NCBI GenBank assembly: GCA_035653255.1
Contig: DASRCF010000089.1
Span: 1,814-65,813, forward strand
Reading direction: 5' to 3'
DNA: 64,000 nucleotides
Origin: Chloroflexota bacterium
GTDB lineage: Bacteria > Chloroflexota > UBA5177 > JAJPKF01
Below, one piece after another: positions 3,530 through 38,331 of the stretch (its first letter is position 1; every line of letters starts with the position of its first letter). The notes beneath the pieces were generated by a model. It saw nothing but the letters and a program-made list of their open reading frames with translations, did no database searches and had not been told where the DNA came from. The translations under genes and the position numbers were made by a program.

Positions 3530-4761
3530 CCTGCCGCTGCGCGCGCCCGCGTTTGTGCGATGATCCCACGAAGCGCCCGTGCCAGCTTGGTGGAGTCGTG
3601 CCGGATCACCGTCACGGTTTGCTCACTGGCCGTGCCCAGCTCCGGATCCAGCGTCAGCCTGGTCTCATTGATGACGTCCATGATGTCCGCTTCGATGACC
3701 GTCGAGCCGGCAATGTTGAGCATCGTCGAGCCCGGGAAGCTTCCTCCCAGGACAACCTTGGAAGCGTCGATGTGCTCTTCGGGCGTCACCATGATCGGAA
3801 ATGAGCCCGTGACCTCGTAGCGGTTGAGGATGTGGGATCCCGGGTAGCTTCGGTTGACGATGGTGTATTGGGGCGCGAAGCCGGCAAAATCACGAAATCT
3901 GGAGATGAAATCGGTGACGGTCCAGCCATCAGTGCGACCGGGCTCGGTCATCACGTTGCATATGAAGATGGTTGCCGCTCGTGCGGCCGCGAGGCGCTCG
4001 CGCAGCTTCGGCACCAGAAGACAGGGCACGACGCTGGTGTAGAAAGACCCCGGCCCAAACACGATCAGGTCCGAAGACTTGATGGCGGTGTCCAACTCCT
4101 GAGGAACGGCCCACGAGGAGGTGTCGGCAGGTGTACGGCTATCGGAGGATAGGAAGAGCTCTTCGACCGGCTGGTGTAGATCACGCTCTATCTCCGCGGC
4201 GCCGGCCACCACCTGCCCATCGGTGAGCCGGGCACAAAGCTGGACATTTTCGGGCGTGGCGAACATTACACGGGCGTCGGGATGTGAGGTGCGCACAAGG
4301 CGTCCTATGGTGCGGTAGTCGCTGCCGACGGCCGGCACTGCTGCCACCCGCCCCACGCTGTCGCTCAGCGCATTCAAGACAATGAGCAGACCCATGTGGC
4401 CGCTGAATAGAGTGGCATCGGGCAGGCCCTGACGCGAAACCGCGCTCAGCACCATCGACTGCCCGGCCTGCTGCTCGACCAGAGATAGGGTGAGGCCAAA
4501 GCGCCCCCGGTGCAGTCGCCAGATTCCAACCAGGACAAGAAGCAGGCCGAGGCCGAAGATCGCGAGCCCCTGTACGATCTTGCCGGCAAAGCGCAGCGTG
4601 ATGTCGTCGACCGCGTTCGCCGGCAGGATATGTCGAAGCAGGTTTAGAACCACCTCGCCGAGGCCGGCTCCGAGCAGCATCACGCCGACGGCCAGCACCA
4701 CCAGCCAGAGGTTACCTGTGGCTCCAAATCCACGCCGTCGCATCAAGACCTCACACTCCAA
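3526..4761 (-). CDS. YvcK/UPF0052 (CofD-like, gluconeogenesis-factor family) paralog with an N-terminal two-helix membrane anchor and a degenerate glycine-rich loop
   Basis: The C-terminal family motifs are intact ('DLIVFGPGSFYTSVVPCLLVP', 'ICNVMTEPGRTDGWT'). The usual 'IGGGTG' loop reads 'FSGHMGL'. The first ~100 aa contain two strongly hydrophobic segments. Confidence 0.75.
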   Translation of the reverse strand: MECEVLMRRRGFGATGNLWLVVLAVGVMLLGAGLGEVVLNLLRHILPANAVDDITLRFAGKIVQGLAIFGLGLLLVLVGIWRLHRGRFGLTLSLVEQQAGQSMVLSAVSRQGLPDATLFSGHMGLLIVLNALSDSVGRVAAVPAVGSDYRTIGRLVRTSHPDARVMFATPENVQLCARLTDGQVVAGAAEIERDLHQPVEELFLSSDSRTPADTSSWAVPQELDTAIKSSDLIVFGPGSFYTSVVPCLLVPKLRERLAAARAATIFICNVMTEPGRTDGWTVTDFISRFRDFAGFAPQYTIVNRSYPGSHILNRYEVTGSFPIMVTPEEHIDASKVVLGGSFPGSTMLNIAGSTVIEADIMDVINETRLTLDPELGTASEQTVTVIRHDSTKLARALRGIIAQTRARAAAG

Positions 4762-34606: not shown

Positions 34607-35218
34607 TTATGAGGCGCCGGCCGTCGCTTCCGGGGTTGGAGGAACATCTAGCGTCTTAGCCAGCTCGGGGAACTGCGCCTTCAAGGCGTTGATGATCTGC
34701 TCCAGCCGGGCGTCCTGAGCCGCCAAATGACTGTCCTGGACCAGCAGGTGGTCTTGGATCTGGTTGGCCTCGTGAAAGATCGCCTCGGCGTCGGCGTAGG
34801 TCTGCTCGGAGCGCTTATCGGACGCCTCACCCTGGATGTTCTGTCCGACGATGATCACCGGCAACAGGACCAGCTGGATGAAGGACTGGCTGATCCATGA
34901 AACGATGATGATCGGATTCTTTGTGGTGAATGAGGACGGCGCACTGACCAGAGAGATCAGGAGAAAGATGTACGCGCACCACATGGTCCCGACCACGCCG
35001 GTCACCAGAATCGCGATCTTCCCGTTGAGACCCACGTGCTCGTCTTTGACCTTCACCGGCTTCTCGTGGCGGTGGCGGAGGATATGGGGGTGAATCTCTC
35101 TGACGAAGTGGAACCGCTCGGAGAGGGACGTGCCGCTTGTCATCTCTTTTCTCCCTGGAAGGTTGCGTTCGACGGATGATAGCGCGTCCCTTTCCGTATC
35201 CGGGTACGGGGAACTCAT
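34607..35218 (-). CDS. DUF1003-like membrane protein (two TM helices plus a C-terminal coiled coil)
   Basis: A central pair of hydrophobic helices is followed by a polar helical tail. A likely alternative start is ATG 35143. Confidence 0.55.
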   Translation of the reverse strand: MSSPYPDTERDALSSVERNLPGRKEMTSGTSLSERFHFVREIHPHILRHRHEKPVKVKDEHVGLNGKIAILVTGVVGTMWCAYIFLLISLVSAPSSFTTKNPIIIVSWISQSFIQLVLLPVIIVGQNIQGEASDKRSEQTYADAEAIFHEANQIQDHLLVQDSHLAAQDARLEQIINALKAQFPELAKTLDVPPTPEATAGAS

Positions 35219-35379
35219 CGCAGCGGTAGAACCTGCGTTGTCCAGTGCGCGAGTTGTGCGGGTGAGGCCGGACTCCGATTCGAGGGAAGAGGGCCGAGCC
35301 CAGACATTGACGGCCGGCTCAACCTAGGGAAGATTCGGCGTCGGAGAGCCGGCTCTCCGACGCCGCTTCGTCACTCGCG

Positions 35380-35469
35380 TCAGCTGCTCTTGGTGGCGCA
35401 GCCGCAGCAGGTGCACGTGCCGTCATTCGGGCAAGTGCAGTCGCAGCACGTGCAGGCATTCTGTGCCAT
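35380..35469 (-). other. possible independently translated 29-aa metallothionein-like peptide (internal start inside the MerR frame)
   Basis: A perfect SD 'AAGGAGGT' sits 8 nt upstream of the in-frame ATG at 35469, inside the MerR coding sequence. Confidence 0.35.
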
Positions 35470-35898
35470 GAGCTCAACCTCCTTATGTGTCGGTAGCCAG
35501 CATTCACAGTCTCCGATTCGGCCGCAGCCCGGACCACCGGCGCTTCCGAGTCGAGCTTGAAGCGCTTCCAGCTCAACCCGCAGTGTCTCGAGCTCGTCGA
35601 TGCGGCGTTCTGTGTCGTGGAGTTTGTGTGCGATGGTATGACGCAGGCGCTGCCCGTCGGTGGCCGGGTCCGATGGCTCCTGCAGCAGCTGCTTGATCTC
35701 GCGAATCCCTAGACCCAGCGACTTCGCGCGCTGGATGAATCCAACCCGTCCCACGGCCGAACAGTCGTACAGCCTGTAGCCCGCGGCCGTGCGCCCCGAG
35801 GGAGCCAGAAGGCCCTCATCCTCGTAGTAGCGCAGGGCCGACCGGCTCACTCCGGTTTCCGCGCTGACATCCTTGATGGTCAGCTCGTCTGTTCTCAT
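35380..35898 (-). CDS. MerR-family metal-responsive regulator (CueR/ZntR-like) with a C-terminal metallothionein-like tail (11 Cys in 29 aa)
   Basis: It has the HTH 'LTIKDVSAETGVSRSALRYYEDEGLL', a dimerisation helix, a metal loop 'GCGRIGDCEC', then 'MAQNACTCCDCTCPNDGTCTCCGCATKSS'. The ORF track opens the frame at TTG 35973. Confidence 0.75.
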   Translation of the reverse strand: MRTDELTIKDVSAETGVSRSALRYYEDEGLLAPSGRTAAGYRLYDCSAVGRVGFIQRAKSLGLGIREIKQLLQEPSDPATDGQRLRHTIAHKLHDTERRIDELETLRVELEALQARLGSAGGPGCGRIGDCECWLPTHKEVELMAQNACTCCDCTCPNDGTCTCCGCATKSS

Positions 35899-36091
35899 AC
35901 TTCGACCGTATACCTTCAAGTGCGCTTGAAGGTCAAGTACCAGGTCTAGAGACTGGTAACGCCGGCTGCTCAATGCCCGCGCCGACGAGCTGGATCATCC
36001 GATAATCTGACAATGAGCTAATCGGCAACCGACTGACTGAAGCGGCCATGAACCGCGTACAAGTCCATTGCCAATAGTGCGGGGATAACCG

Positions 36092-36640
36092 ATGCCGGCA
36101 GGTCTGACCATCTTTGTGGCGACATATCTCGTGTTCATCGAGGCAGGGGTCGCCGTCTTAATTCTGGGCTGGCTTGCATACAACAAGCCGCGGGGCTGGC
36201 TTGTCCGCTGGGCCGTTGCCGCAATCTTGATCTTGGCGCTCAGCTACATCTTCGCCAAGATTGGAGGTGCGGTATACCGAGACCCAAGACCCTTTACCCA
36301 GGATCATGTCAAGCCGCTCATCTCGCACGCCCGCGACAACGGCTTCCCCTCCGACCACGCGTTGCTTGCGGCCGCTCTGGTGGCACTCCTCCTCTTTACC
36401 GGCGATTGGTGGTGGGCCGTGCCCTTAGCAGTTATGGCGGTGCTGGTCGATTGGGCCCGAGTCGGCAGCGGTCTTCACCATGTCGTCGATGTGGTCGGAA
36501 GCTCGCTGTTCGTGCTGGTCGCTATCCTCATCGCGGTGGCCGCCACACCATTCGTCGTCTCGCTGCTTTATCCGCATCTCCCCGCGGCGTTTCGGGAGGG
36601 CCTGAGCCCGCAAAGAGATACTTTGAAAAGTGGGACCTAG
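36092..36640 (+). CDS. PAP2-family membrane phosphatase (PgpB/undecaprenyl-diphosphatase-like)
   Basis: The motifs 'FPSDHA' and 'SGLHHVVDVVGS' are present (PAP2 boxes 2 and 3). Confidence 0.75.
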   Translation: MPAGLTIFVATYLVFIEAGVAVLILGWLAYNKPRGWLVRWAVAAILILALSYIFAKIGGAVYRDPRPFTQDHVKPLISHARDNGFPSDHALLAAALVALLLFTGDWWWAVPLAVMAVLVDWARVGSGLHHVVDVVGSSLFVLVAILIAVAATPFVVSLLYPHLPAAFREGLSPQRDTLKSGT

Positions 36641-36741
36641 ATGAGTGGTTGAGCCGGGACTCGGCGAGGGCGTACTGCCACGCGACACGGTGAGCCGGCA
36701 GTAGGGTTCGGCTGGCGGGGATCCGTGGACGGAGGATAAGA

Positions 36742-37662
36742 ATGGACGAAGCTTTAGATCGTTGGCCGGAGTTGCCGTTCGCCCGCTGGGAGGATACACA
36801 GGCCACGCTCCACATGTGGTGCCAGGTCGTCGGCAAGGTCAAGCTGAAGCTGACGCCGTTCCTGAACGAGTGGTGGAACGTCGCCTTCTTTGTGACCGCG
36901 CGGGGAATGACGACGGGGCTCATTCCCTACGGGCGGGGAGCCTTCCAGGTCGACTTCGACTTCATGAACCACTCGCTCGCGATACTGACGGATGCCGGAG
37001 TGAGCGAGGTCACGGCGCTGGGCCCACGCAGCGTAGCCGAGTTTTACCGCGACTTCATGGCGCGCTTGAAAGCCGCCGGGATCGATGTGGCCATTGATCC
37101 GGTACCGACGGAGGTACCGGCCCCGGTTCCATTTGACGTCGACCACACCCATGCTTCATATGACGCCGATTCCGTGAATCGCTTCTGGCGCATCCTCCTG
37201 CAGACGGACCTGGCCCTCCAGCGCTTCCGCTCCTCGTTCGTGGGCAAGAGCAGCCCCATCCACTTCTTCTGGGGCTCGTTTGACCTCGCCTACACGAGAT
37301 TCTCTGGACGTCCGGCACCGAAGCCCGAAGGCGCGCCGCACTTCTTCCAGCTGGCCGAGGACCAGGAGAACATCGCCTTCGGGTTCTGGCCAGGGAACGC
37401 AAACATGGCCGGGACACGGCTGGGAGAGCCGGCGTTCTACTCTTACATCTATCCGGCTCCGGGCGGGTATTCCAGAGCCACGGTCCACCCCGCAGGCGCC
37501 CATTTCAACGCCGCGCTGGGTGAGTTCATCCTGCCCTACGGCGACGTGAGGCAGGCTGCCTCTCCGAACGACCACCTGCTCACCTTCTTCCAGAGCGCCT
37601 ACCAAGTGGCCGCGGACCTCGCCGGCTGGGACCGACCGGCTCTCGAGCGTCAAGCCGGCTGA
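36742..37662 (+). CDS. conserved hypothetical protein (possibly DUF5996-like)
   Basis: It is a 306-aa soluble protein with no recognisable catalytic motif. The family assignment is tentative. Confidence 0.6.
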   Translation: MDEALDRWPELPFARWEDTQATLHMWCQVVGKVKLKLTPFLNEWWNVAFFVTARGMTTGLIPYGRGAFQVDFDFMNHSLAILTDAGVSEVTALGPRSVAEFYRDFMARLKAAGIDVAIDPVPTEVPAPVPFDVDHTHASYDADSVNRFWRILLQTDLALQRFRSSFVGKSSPIHFFWGSFDLAYTRFSGRPAPKPEGAPHFFQLAEDQENIAFGFWPGNANMAGTRLGEPAFYSYIYPAPGGYSRATVHPAGAHFNAALGEFILPYGDVRQAASPNDHLLTFFQSAYQVAADLAGWDRPALERQAG

Positions 37663-37677
37663 GCGACCCACTGGAGG

Positions 37678-38331
37678 TCAGCCAGGTGGGATCCCGCCGC
37701 TAGGATGAGCTTCGGAGGCCGTTGTCGATTCGGAGGTCAGCCGCGACTCAATCCTCCGATCGGGAATGAGCCAGAGAAGCGCCACGCCGACGTAGATGAC
37801 AACCGATCCCCAGGACGCGACGAATGCCAGCGGAGCGGCGACCAGATACGCAAGTGCCGATAACTTCCCCTTGAAGTCGCGACCCACCGCTCTGGCCAGA
37901 TCCGAGTCCGGTTGCTGTTGCCGAAGGATGACCCGCAGCAGGATGAAGTAGGCGATTGCCGCCATGAGCCCGACGAAACCGTACGCCGCCGTAGGAAGCG
38001 CCTCGAGGCCTTGCTCACCCAGCCATCGGGTCGCGAACGGAATGAGCGAGAGCCAGAACAGGAGATGGAGATTCGCCCACAGCACTCCTCCACTGATGCG
38101 TTCGACCATCGTGAACAGGTGATGGTGGTTGCTCCAGTAAATCCCCAGGAACACAAAGCTCAATAGATAGATCAGGACCAGTGGAAGCTCCCCACGGAGC
38201 GCCGTCCAACCCGCTCCTTTCGGAGTGGCCAGGGATAGCACCATGATGGTGATCAGAATGGCGATGACGCCGTCGCTGAATGTCTCCAGCCTGGCTGAGC
38301 TCAACTCACGATTCCCCGGCGAAGTTTCCAC
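37678..38331 (-). CDS. TMEM175/DUF1211-family membrane protein (putative K+ channel)
   Basis: TM1 carries the signature 'RLETFSDGVIAILITIMVL'. There are six predicted helices. Confidence 0.75.
   Translation of the reverse strand: METSPGNRELSSARLETFSDGVIAILITIMVLSLATPKGAGWTALRGELPLVLIYLLSFVFLGIYWSNHHHLFTMVERISGGVLWANLHLLFWLSLIPFATRWLGEQGLEALPTAAYGFVGLMAAIAYFILLRVILRQQQPDSDLARAVGRDFKGKLSALAYLVAAPLAFVASWGSVVIYVGVALLWLIPDRRIESRLTSESTTASEAHPSGGIPPG

Follow-up and report, generated by a model that had tools for sequence, protein, structure and literature searches.

The gene analyzed here is a minus-strand open reading frame of 172 aa (35380..35898, with its ATG at 35898) in a window of 64 kb, the window being the whole stretch of DNA that was analyzed. 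The translation that had been quoted for this ORF in a first-pass annotation held exactly, and the product is identical to HZT96100.1, a database entry labeled only as a "MerR family transcriptional regulator". We determined that this MerR-family protein contains 13 Cys in total. A TTG upstream, at 35973, would extend the ORF to 197 aa, but it was rejected as the start codon because the conserved promoter described below falls inside that extension. Nested in the same frame is a second ORF of 29 aa (35380..35469, minus strand; from the ATG at 35469-35467 to the shared stop codon), which encodes the tail of the full-length protein and is also a candidate for a free metallothionein-like peptide. 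For comparative purposes a set of 30 distinct homologous DNA sequences (41-77% identity) was assembled from the Chloroflexota, including the cultured Nitrolancea hollandica, and the Dormibacterota; together they make up a small gene family of soil bacteria.

MerR-family domains and the metal-binding loop

The first-pass annotation had described a MerR helix-turn-helix, a coiled coil and a metal-binding loop, GCGRIGDCEC, and all of these held. The winged helix-turn-helix and the long dimerization helix occupy residues 7-113 (35560..35880, minus strand), as was apparent from both Pfam and AlphaFold. Two Pfam models, MerR_1 (PF13411; 3.4e-17, 62.7 bits versus a cutoff of 21.6) and MerR (PF00376; 9.5e-16, 57.8 bits versus a cutoff of 28.2), together span residues 7-74, and a third, MerR-DNA-bind (PF09278; 3.5e-14, 53.6 bits), covers residues 51-113. 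Consistent with these matches, AlphaFold predicted residues 7-113 with a pLDDT of ~90 or above and a helix at residues 78-119, and in a comparison with the PDB the nearest solved structure was E. coli CueR (E 3.5e-14). The metal-binding loop begins at C125 and has the form C125-x5-C131-x-C133-W-L-P (C125-GRIGD-C131-E-C133-WLP; 35491..35526, minus strand); eight of its residues, C125, G126, G129, C131, C133, W134, L135 and P136, are invariant across 27 family proteins. The assignment to the MerR family meets all of the criteria of a helix-turn-helix, a dimerization helix and an operator in an over-long spacer, with binding of the operator being inferred from its sequence.

In its winged helix-turn-helix, long antiparallel dimerization helix and loop Cys at the end of that helix, the protein is like CueR and ZntR, CadR/PbrR and MerR, and its C125/C133 share the C-x7-C spacing of C112/C120 in CueR. 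Opposite Ser77 of CueR in the alignment is G82, which differs among family members without ever being Cys, and a Cys equivalent to the divalent-sensor Cys79 is lacking (G82 here). However, the equivalog scores show that the window protein belongs to a separate subfamily from CueR, as it scored 76.3 bits against TIGR02044 (cutoff 147.4) and 53.7 against NF007590 (cutoff 244), and it did not exceed the cutoff of any MerR-type equivalog, being far below all of them. There are also structural differences. Unlike in E. coli CueR, the loop lies 8 residues further from the helix, there is a third invariant Cys (C131) and the WLP is invariant. The C-terminus of E. coli CueR is a short CCHH, whereas proteins of the present family carry a Cys-rich tail of 29-45 aa.

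Promoter, operator and transcript

Directly 5' of the start codon are the elements of a MerR-type promoter, all on the minus strand. The -35 hexamer, TTGACC (35931..35936), was identified by direct reading and is conserved in the family, and the -10 hexamer, TACGGT (TAnnnT; 35905..35910), is 20 bp from the -35 and 6 nt from the ATG. A dyad search identified a perfect 9+9 inverted repeat in the 20-bp spacer, ACCTTCAAG-cgca-CTTGAAGGT (35912..35933), which we designate as the putative operator in the absence of any binding data. The region 35899-35990 had been suggested as the place to look for a MerR-type operator, and one was found there, the TTGACC, dyad, 20-bp spacer and TACGGT lying together at 35905-35936. 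As in CueR-type systems, the dyad has the outer half-site ACCTTC/GAAGGT in a 19-20-bp spacer; PcopA is the background example on which this half-site comparison is based. The dyad is the sole such site in the window (0 expected), and when up to 4 mismatches were allowed it was present once per locus in 27 family loci (~270 kb scanned), always just 5' of the family gene. No second operator was found in the 64-kb window or in the ~270 kb of family loci. TTGACN is at the equivalent position 5' of all full-length family genes (n = 23+), and TTGACN-N20-TAnnnT fits all full-length members of the family. A generic sigma-70 scan that considered spacers of 16-18 nt called no promoter at the window gene, which is explained by the over-long (20 bp) spacer of a MerR-type promoter. 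Based on the location of the site directly 5' of the start in all full-length members, we consider the gene to be under the control of its own activatable, MerR-type promoter, although the evidence for this is at the level of sequence only. A further candidate, an internal sigma-70-like promoter at TGGCTACCAAC, was rejected because inspection by eye revealed no -35 and -10 elements that were both acceptable and suitably spaced.

In ~22 of 26 genes of the family, the -10 hexamer is followed by the start codon after 5-9 nt, which implies that the mRNA is leaderless, and in the window gene there is no room for a Shine-Dalgarno (SD) sequence between the promoter and the ATG. It is likely that the window ORF is translated from a leaderless mRNA, an inference made without expression data for the transcription start. 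In high-GC bacteria, a TAnnnT near the start codon has been published as a mark of leaderless genes, which are a minority (4-6%) in the Chloroflexi (PMC3160421). Leaderless expression is not universal in the family, since a leader is present 5' of the main start in Nitrolancea (L008) and in two other loci (L004 and L006), that of L008 being ~21 nt in length and bearing an SD. At the other end of the gene, 16 nt past the stop codon, there is a perfect 28-nt palindrome, GGCGTCGGAGAGCC/GGCTCTCCGACGCC (35337..35364, minus strand), for which RNAfold gave a 13-bp GC-rich stem and which resembles a terminator hairpin without a U-tract. A simple terminator scan did not call this hairpin because it has no T-run; at most family loci, a comparable GC-rich hairpin lies 3' of the stop codon. 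The neighboring genes differ at every family locus, and neither a metal transporter nor any recurrent gene was found beside the family gene in the loci examined. Unlike CueR, whose target is an adjacent efflux ATPase, the predicted target of the window protein is its own leaderless, monocistronic gene.

The Cys-rich tail

The tail, MAQNACTCCDCTCPNDGTCTCCGCATKSS, has 9 Cys in 29 aa (31%) arranged as CxCCxCxC-x5-CxCCxC; an earlier count of 11 Cys in 29 aa was incorrect, and the CxC/CC pattern reported with it held. There are no aromatic residues in the tail (no F, Y or W) and also no H. The tail fits the operational metallothionein class (small, ~15-35% Cys, CxC/CC, no aromatics), in that the sequence criteria are all met, and the formation of metal-thiolate clusters is inferred. 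It is similar to SmtA/BmtA, MymT of mycobacteria and the short fungal Cu-metallothioneins in being small, with ~30% Cys in CxC/CC patterns and no aromatics, the likeness to MymT and the fungal proteins resting on general background. As for metallothioneins, the tail is predicted to be disordered without metal, and its expression is linked to a metal sensor. AlphaFold placed a short helix at residues 138-146 and predicted the protein past residue 146 with low confidence and no secondary structure. Unlike metallothioneins, the tail is encoded within the reading frame of a regulator and not as a separate gene, and its metal binding is inferred. Four of the family tails had no match in Pfam and NCBIfam, metallothionein families included, at E values of up to 10. 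In an exhaustive profile search covering 1.84 billion representatives, no stand-alone version of the C-terminal module was identified; the 11 sequences found were all either fused to this subfamily of MerR or cut off at contig ends. In addition, the literature searched contained no account of a metallothionein-like tail on a MerR regulator, or of a nested metallothionein.

The first-pass annotation would have been contradicted had orthologs ended before the Cys-rich segment, and this was not the case: the tail is in frame in all 27 database homologs and in all loci recovered. Family tails are always Cys-rich, their length and Cys pattern vary (29-45 aa) and the Met with which they begin is nearly invariant. 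As the fusion is never interrupted by a stop codon in the family, the full-length form must itself be under selection and could suffice as a sink. These data also bear on whether the fusion is an artefact, in which an error of assembly or sequencing merged merR with a small, adjacent Cys-rich gene, or the tail is a chance extension of low complexity. In support of an artefact, a sister lineage (L025) does hold two separate genes. However, the same in-frame junction recurs across independent assemblies, in 30 distinct sequences in all, one of them from the genome of the isolate Nitrolancea hollandica Lb (L008; family gene in NZ_CAGS01000067.1, at 4001-4525 of the locus), and the junction itself, CWLPTxxEVxxM, is the most conserved stretch of the C-terminus, and we regard this explanation as all but excluded. 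In L025, the merR gene is followed by a separate, out-of-frame Cys-rich ORF of 59 aa with its own SD, AAGGAGA, which indicates that in this lineage such a peptide is encoded for its own translation. Another locus of this sister lineage, L031, has merR and the Cys-rich part in one frame with the Met kept.

An alternative role for the Cys-rich region is that it is mainly a sensory cluster rather than a store, in which case a free peptide, if made, would tune the threshold of the sensor by competition. One form of such a cluster would be a switch based on polynuclear Cu(I)-thiolate, of the type found in yeast Ace1/Mac1 and Drosophila MTF-1; another would be a SoxR-like redox or Fe-S sensor. In support of the first version, Ace1/Amt1, Mac1 and Drosophila MTF-1 are, like the window protein, transcription factors with a metallothionein-like Cys cluster, and the cluster of dMTF-1, which can bind several Cu(I) ions, shows that a transcription factor can use clustered Cys residues to sense Cu, by way of a tetranuclear Cu(I) cluster (PMC2396432). 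However, those proteins have unrelated DNA-binding folds and no homology to the window protein, and in them the cluster is the sensor, whereas the window protein also has a CueR-type loop. In support of the second version, the alignment to the NCBIfam SoxR model extends as far as residue 140, and the operator half-site, CTTCAAG, is similar to the half-site of the SoxR box, which is generally known to be CCTCAAG; one family locus (L007) has CCCTCAAG. Against it, the SoxR motif CX2CXCX5C is missing (here, C-x5-C-x-C) and the score against TIGR01950 was 54 bits versus a cutoff of 116.9. Two further points weigh against a sensory cluster of either kind: the highly variable length and Cys pattern of the tail are better suited to a sink than to a precise switch, and a positively autoregulated gene without another target nearby needs its own product as the effector. 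We think it unlikely that the region is mainly sensory.

The internal start and its interpretation

Within codons K139-E140-V141 there is an internal SD, AAGGAGGT (35477..35484, minus strand), which was assigned on the basis of its conservation and is followed by the in-frame ATG at 35469-35467, the codon of M144. It had been placed exactly 8 nt upstream of this ATG, which is correct for the GGAGG core, the distance from AAGGAGGT being 7 nt. It had also been called the best SD of its neighborhood; in the context of a single genome, an internal SD and ATG are not beyond chance: AAGGAGGT is the sole copy of that 8-mer in the window, versus 1.23 expected, and the window holds 238 GGAGG sites, many of them with a start codon after. 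The weight of the internal SD and ATG derives instead from their conservation across homologs. That the organism uses SD-led initiation is evident from window genes at 36731, 6433, 48083 and 55825, which start 5-9 nt after a GGAGG.

It is possible, although less likely than the explanation preferred below, that only the full-length fusion matters, with the tail an attached buffering or sensing extension and no meaningful free peptide produced. The conservation of the SD and Met would then result from the need for the helix at residues 138-146 together with a preference for GAG, or from an internal SD-like site that slows elongation. Supporting this full-length-only explanation are the in-frame fusion in 30/30 sequences, the AlphaFold helix at residues 138-146, the presence of E-E-V (LEEV, IEEV) in sister-lineage MerR proteins without a Met after it, and the overall share of GAG among Glu codons, which is ~70% (68-72%). 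The sister-lineage E-E-V and the helix also count against a model with two products, since part of the conservation in the SD region may be structural.

Against the full-length-only explanation are several features of the nucleotide sequence. A GGAGG followed by 5 or 8 nt and an in-frame ATG is present at the same place in 29/30 distinct homologous sequences, with a spacing from GGAGG to ATG of exactly 8 nt in 26 of the 30, and AGGAGG is kept in 28; in the exception, L002, GGAGG is 11 nt, and GAGG 4 or 7 nt, ahead of two adjacent ATGs. The absence of an initiation signal at the internal ATG, which would have counted against the first-pass annotation, was thus not observed. In a protein-level exception (P0022; Thr, with the Met shifted by one codon), the codon upstream is ACG, which restores GGAGG-N5-ATG with the GGAGG kept. 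The residues that overlap the SD are K/E/Q (all xAG), then E (always GAG), then V/A/G/D (all Gxx), and the effect of these substitutions is to preserve AGGAGG; the K/E/Q swaps at the -4 codon include a charge reversal and, with V/A/G/D at the -2 codon, are unlike what would be expected from helix packing. Where these tripeptides occur in long ORFs at the family loci, just 37% (32/87) are encoded by AGGAGG. At the SD, GAG is used for Glu in 23/23 and 17/18 cases, versus 6/11 and 8/13 in the adjacent Glu columns, where GAA makes up ~40-45%. The region of the internal start is also unusually open and low in GC: GC is 0.53-0.58 at -25..+10 of the ATG versus ~0.65-0.75 in the rest of the gene, and the predicted opening energy is 12.6 versus 17.0 kcal/mol in control windows of the same genes (p = 4e-5). 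Lastly, at the sister locus L025 the Cys-rich part is an ORF of its own, led by an SD. It is important to note that the 30 sequences are phylogenetically related, and naive probabilities for the SD conservation would be overstated. Within that limit, the data indicate that the nucleotides of the internal SD and ATG are more conserved than the protein sequence would require. No conserved RNA structure was detected at the internal start with RNAalifold (-3.4 kcal/mol, no covariation), and a weak, invariant GCUACC/GGAGGU pairing there was rejected as evidence.

An arrangement of this kind is known for antibiotics. TipA is an autoregulated MerR-family gene with two start codons (PMC7762955), and AlbA/AlbAS of Klebsiella is likewise an autoregulated MerR-family gene with two in-frame starts. 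In both, the long form serves as sensor and activator, whereas the short form consists only of the C-terminal ligand-binding part, is predominant and is a neutralizing sink. The window gene is like TipAL/TipAS of Streptomyces and AlbA/AlbAS in being a single autoregulated gene with an internal SD and ATG before the C-terminal ligand-binding part, with use of that start here being inferred. The likeness to TipA is in logic only, as the TipAS domain (PF07739) is absent among the Pfam matches. Whereas TipA and AlbA recognize antibiotics, the ligand here is presumed to be a metal, and the short product would be a Cys-rich peptide of 29-45 aa in place of a folded domain of ~140 aa, the existence of two products being itself inferred.

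The explanation that we prefer, and that we judge to be as likely as not, is that this one gene is a self-activating metal sensor-plus-sink with two in-frame products in the manner of TipAL/TipAS. Shown in its support are the MerR domains, the conserved tail, the promoter and operator, the nucleotide conservation of the SD and ATG, the lack of conserved neighbors and the split sister lineage. In the proposed mechanism, a CueR-like MerR-family dimer would bind its own promoter at the dyad in the over-long 20-bp spacer, and the metal-loaded dimer would activate that promoter. The resulting monocistronic transcript would begin at or next to the ATG, and so probably be leaderless, and would end at the hairpin. 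From it, the 5'-terminal ATG would give the 172-aa sensor with its metallothionein-like tail, and AGGAGG-N8-ATG would give a free 29-aa peptide with 9 Cys, which would probably be the more abundant product. The inducing metal, for which Cu(I) or another soft metal is the most likely candidate, would be sequestered by the tail and free peptide, and the consequent fall in free metal would turn the positive loop off. Inferred in this scheme are the site at which transcription starts, initiation at the internal ATG, the relative amounts of the two products, the binding and identity of the metal, and the sequestration feedback, and a point against the two-product model is its complete lack of expression data, be it from TSS mapping, Ribo-seq, proteomics or metal assays. 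It is also possible that the 29-aa peptide is unstable. The first-pass reading of the locus as a tailed sensor, an internal-start metallothionein, or both, is nevertheless supported, with initiation at 35469, peptide stability and metal binding remaining inferences.

A bolder reading, toward which we are more reserved and lean slightly against, is that the nested ORF represents an undescribed family of metallothionein-like peptides that is translated independently inside the 3' end of the gene for its own MerR-type sensor, a smallest unit of metal resistance that arose from the fusion of a merR-metallothionein operon. Were it correct, one promoter and one leaderless mRNA would yield two products, a sensor and a sink. 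Bacterial metallothioneins are rare and easily missed, and this candidate family would have been overlooked by gene callers owing to its in-frame position within an annotated regulator. If the internal start is used, the TipA/AlbA principle would be extended from antibiotics to metals. The locus would also be a natural example of a gene fusion that retained the ribosome-binding site of the downstream gene, and a compact, portable part for metal sensing and metal sequestration in synthetic biology. The case would be directly testable in a cultured organism, Nitrolancea hollandica Lb.

A separate observation concerns codon usage in the WLP motif, whose Leu and Pro codons in the window gene are CTA CCG (35491..35496, minus strand). 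A role for CTA/CCA in keeping the ribosome-binding site unstructured was rejected, as swapping in CTG CCG changed the opening energy only from 12.6 to 12.9 kcal/mol (p = 0.70). With predicted RNA accessibility excluded as its cause, the bias is left without an explanation: among 23-25 genes, the Leu codon is CTA in 15-17 and the Pro codon is CCA in 17-20, whereas elsewhere in the same family genes CTA accounts for 3% of Leu codons and CCA for 12% of Pro codons.

The MerR part and its Cys-rich tail

The window gene (35898-35380, minus strand) encodes a MerR-family protein of 172 aa, in which residues 7-113 match the Pfam families MerR_1, MerR and MerR-DNA-bind and for which the closest solved structure is that of E. 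coli CueR (residues 7-116, gapless alignment, E 3.5e-14). At the sequence level, all three of the features that define the MerR family are satisfied. Every NCBIfam metal-sensor equivalog was matched, CueR best (76 bits versus a cutoff of 147), then ZntR, CadR, MerR and SoxR, but all scores were far under cutoff, and the protein is therefore a relative of the MerR-family metal sensors and the orthologue of no named one. It lies outside those five equivalogs and also outside the TipA class, having no TipAS domain.

The loop after the long helix reads C125-GRIGD-C131-E-C133-WLP, and the spacing of C125 and C133 is the C-x7-C spacing of the Cys ligands of CueR. In the AlphaFold model a short helix (HKEVELMAQ) is predicted downstream of the loop at residues 138-146, and the Cys-rich end is unstructured and of low confidence. 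The sequence quoted in the first-pass annotation was exact; the 11 Cys it claimed for the 29-aa tail were not confirmed, the count being 9. The tail satisfies the operational definition of a metallothionein at the sequence level, yet falls in no described metallothionein family, and metal binding by it is inferred. That the tail is chiefly a sensory cluster, like the Cu(I) clusters of Ace1 and dMTF-1 (PMC2396432) or that of SoxR, is unlikely, given that the SoxR motif is not present and that the length and pattern of the tail are too variable for a precise switch.

A database search identified a protein identical to that of the window (HZT96100.1, from a Chloroflexota MAG) and 26 more clusters at 46-75% identity, all of which share the consensus CGxxGDCxCWLPTxxEVxxM and, after it, a Cys-rich tail. 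The DNA of homologues came from genome and metagenome scans, which contributed MAGs of both Chloroflexota and Dormibacterota as well as a cultured organism, the nitrite oxidiser Nitrolancea hollandica Lb (L008). With 30 independent sequences, an isolate genome among them, the possibility that the fusion is an assembly artefact is all but excluded. When the C-terminal module was used as a profile to search 1.84 billion representative proteins exhaustively, only 11 matches were returned, each joined to the same MerR part or cut by contig ends; the family is therefore small, and the module has no other known occurrence.

Two sets of members are aberrant. In a diverged subgroup (loci L011, L052 and L053 (Dormibacterota), proteins P0126 and P0130), loop Cys133 is replaced by Tyr, most tail Cys are gone and a long non-Cys extension is present; in P0130, EEVIAM is followed by non-Cys sequence, and a frameshift is possible. 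In the member found at L059 (2140-3300) and L060 (1-447), the WLP..EEV..M segment is absent, so that the tail abuts the loop (..GDCAC directly before CGCTCASDD..), and the HTH region is absent or exchanged for unrelated upstream sequence. It has likely become a pseudogene by rearrangement, and no other member was found to lack the internal Shine-Dalgarno (SD) motif and ATG.

The internal start is conserved at the nucleotide level

The SD and in-frame ATG claimed within the merR coding sequence held: AAGGAGGT is at 35484-35477 and the ATG at 35469, with the claimed gap of 8 nt when counted from the GGAGG core and of 7 nt from AAGGAGGT. In this genome alone the pair is not beyond chance, as AAGGAGGT occurs once in the window versus 1.2 expected, and the window (63% GC) has 238 GGAGG sites, many with a start codon after them. 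The weight rests on the relatives. Ordinary window genes begin 5-9 nt after GGAGG, such as the DUF5996 gene at 36742, and SD-led initiation is therefore used by the organism.

GGAGG precedes an in-frame ATG in 29 of the 30 distinct DNA sequences (gap of 8 nt in 26 and 5 nt in 3), and in 28 of these the motif is AGGAGG. Codon -4 encodes K, E or Q (AAG, GAG, CAG), all residue changes keeping the SD; codon -3 is Glu, GAG in every case; and codon -2 encodes V, A, G or D with a first base of G throughout. The series GAG GAG GTG AAG ATC ATG is kept in the diverged Dormibacterota subgroup despite the loss of several Cys. Two seeming exceptions are still consistent, at the sequence level, with a conserved internal start: protein P0022 has Thr at -4 and Met one codon earlier (ACG GAG GTC GCC ATG, that is, GGAGG-N5-ATG), and locus L002 has GAA at -4 but has gained GGAGG 3 nt upstream, with two ATGs side by side.

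It remains possible that the fusion alone matters, and that the SD and Met are kept for protein structure or through codon bias. In favor of this are the unbroken reading frame in every member, the modelled helix and the presence of E-E-V in sister MerRs. Against it are the substitutions at the SD codons, the site-specific codon usage and the fixed SD-ATG spacing, whose exceptions are compensated. We argue that K/E exchange at -4 reverses charge, which helix packing would not predict. The Glu codon inside the SD is GAG in 23/23 genes and the preceding one in 17/18, compared with just 6/11 and 8/13 in neighbouring Glu columns, and where [KEQ]E[VAG] occurs in long ORFs from the family loci, AGGAGG encodes it in 32/87 cases.

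The GC minimum of the gene lies at -25..+10 around the internal ATG, where the predicted opening energy is 12.6 kcal/mol versus 17.0 in control windows of the same family genes (p = 4e-5); no conserved RNA structure was found in this region of the family. A naive probability of ~0.54 to the 30th power, which ignores kinship, is too extreme because the sequences are related. Allowing for just ten effective lineages still leaves the pattern unlikely, and the substitutions are qualitatively telling. Conservation of the internal start is thus shown; its use in translation is inferred.

A further codon bias sits 12-20 nt upstream of the SD. The Leu codon of the invariant C-x-C-W-L-P motif is CTA in 15-17 of 23-25 genes and its Pro codon CCA in 17-20 of 23-25, whereas elsewhere in the same genes CTA makes up 3% of Leu and CCA 12% of Pro codons (35491-35496 on the minus strand of the window; also L001-L010, L039-L057, L121, L123 and L124). 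Predicted accessibility of the ribosome-binding site does not account for it, since a CTG CCG swap left the prediction unchanged. An 85-aa ORF in another frame (35319-35576, minus strand) overlaps the tail region and looks spurious.

Promoter, neighbouring genes and a putative feedback circuit

Promoters activated by MerR proteins are recognised by a 19-20-bp spacer containing a dyad. Immediately upstream of every full-length family member, TTGACN and TAnnnT stand 20 bp apart, and the spacer between them contains the dyad ACCTTCAAG-N4-CTTGAAGGT. The MerR-type operator that the first-pass annotation had proposed looking for is therefore present, as a perfect dyad at 35933-35912. It occurs once in the 64-kb window (0 expected). 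Within ~270 kb of family loci, 27 loci contain a single copy each at <=4 mismatches, always before the family gene. A generic scan with 16-18-nt spacers gave no match at this promoter, as expected because its spacer is 20 bp. A TTG-extended ORF of 197 aa (TTG at 35973) looks spurious, as the extension would take in the conserved promoter.

An in-frame ATG or GTG follows the -10 element by 5-9 nt in ~22/26 genes (6 nt in the window), leaving no space for a leader or SD. In high-GC bacteria, TAnnnT near the start codon is the published signature of leaderless genes; such genes are a minority of 4-6% in Chloroflexi genomes (PMC3160421). Exceptions that have a leader are Nitrolancea (GGAGGT inside it), L004 and L006. 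Most loci have a GC-rich hairpin after the stop codon, in the window a perfect 28-nt palindrome without a U-tract (35364-35337). From these features, and with the transcription start itself inferred, we infer that the family gene forms a complete transcription unit whose product regulates its own promoter.

Flanking genes vary from locus to locus, with no metal transporter among them in any family locus examined. In the window they are a membrane protein that matches DUF1003 only weakly and below the cutoff (34607-35218, minus), a PAP2 phosphatase (36092-36640, plus), the DUF5996 protein (36742-37662, plus) and a TMEM175-like channel (37678-38331, minus); none is metal-related or recurs beside the gene in other loci.

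In the circuit we propose, the apo or low-metal regulator would occupy its own promoter, and metal at the CueR-type loop, possibly assisted by the tail, would switch transcription on. Some full-length sensor would be made from the 5' ATG of the leaderless mRNA, and the strong internal SD would yield free Cys-rich peptide, probably in larger amount. Metal bound by tail and peptide would lower free metal and turn the loop off. Where an activator is positively autoregulated and has no second target nearby, the arrangement is understandable only when the effector is its own product. AlbA/AlbAS is, beside TipA, a second case of such dual-product logic. Our best guess for the inducer, whose identity is inferred, is Cu(I) or another soft metal, because CueR is closest, G82 occupies the Cys79 position of divalent sensors and the outer half-site is ACCTTC; Hg, Cd or Zn would also be compatible with three loop Cys. 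The literature searched contained no description of a metallothionein-like tail on a MerR regulator or of a nested metallothionein. The parts (MerR metal sensor, TipA-style dual products, here inferred, and metallothionein-like peptide) are known; as far as that search extends, their combination had not been described.

Separate and fused states in a sister lineage

In a related Chloroflexota MerR group, locus L025 (3925-4751) has a leaderless-type merR behind the same type of promoter (TTGACC-N20-TATAGT). This merR terminates ...CACLPIPLEEVTRSV at its stop codon, and ~75 nt past it a separate ORF of 59 aa lies in a different frame; it has 10 Cys and its own SD (AAGGAGAcgacgATG), and a hairpin comes after it. 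In L031 (3968-4684) the same two parts share one frame with no stop between them and the Met kept; both two-gene and fused states therefore occur in nature. The small protein (GCGCGCDGSCGCG...CxCGC) gave no match in Pfam or NCBIfam; its single stand-alone database homologue, P0131, is annotated as hypothetical. It is likely, by inference from this lineage, that the window's family arose most simply by a fusion that retained the ribosome-binding site of the downstream gene.

Thermomicrobiales and Sphaerobacteraceae MerR loci have a second MerR-type promoter-like element (TTGACC, dyad, TAnnnT) at the merR 3' end, overlapping or directly after it in L021 (~780-830), L024/L030 and L028 (~4380-4430) and just past the stop in L016, L020 and L026. 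Several face a gene with an LmbE/PIG-L deacetylase motif (AHPDDES), and the merR coding end may, to judge by its appearance, double as a target promoter there.

More distant MerR homologues of 240-290 aa (P0030, P0035, P0059, P0078, P0091 and P0109, one from Acidimicrobiales) have precomputed Pfam domains of MerR families only. Besides a Cys of the Cys79 type and a CxxxCxC loop, they possess an additional C-terminal domain of ~110 aa, without assignment among those Pfam domains, in which the motifs IACTL and CC(A/S)FF(S/E)F are conserved.
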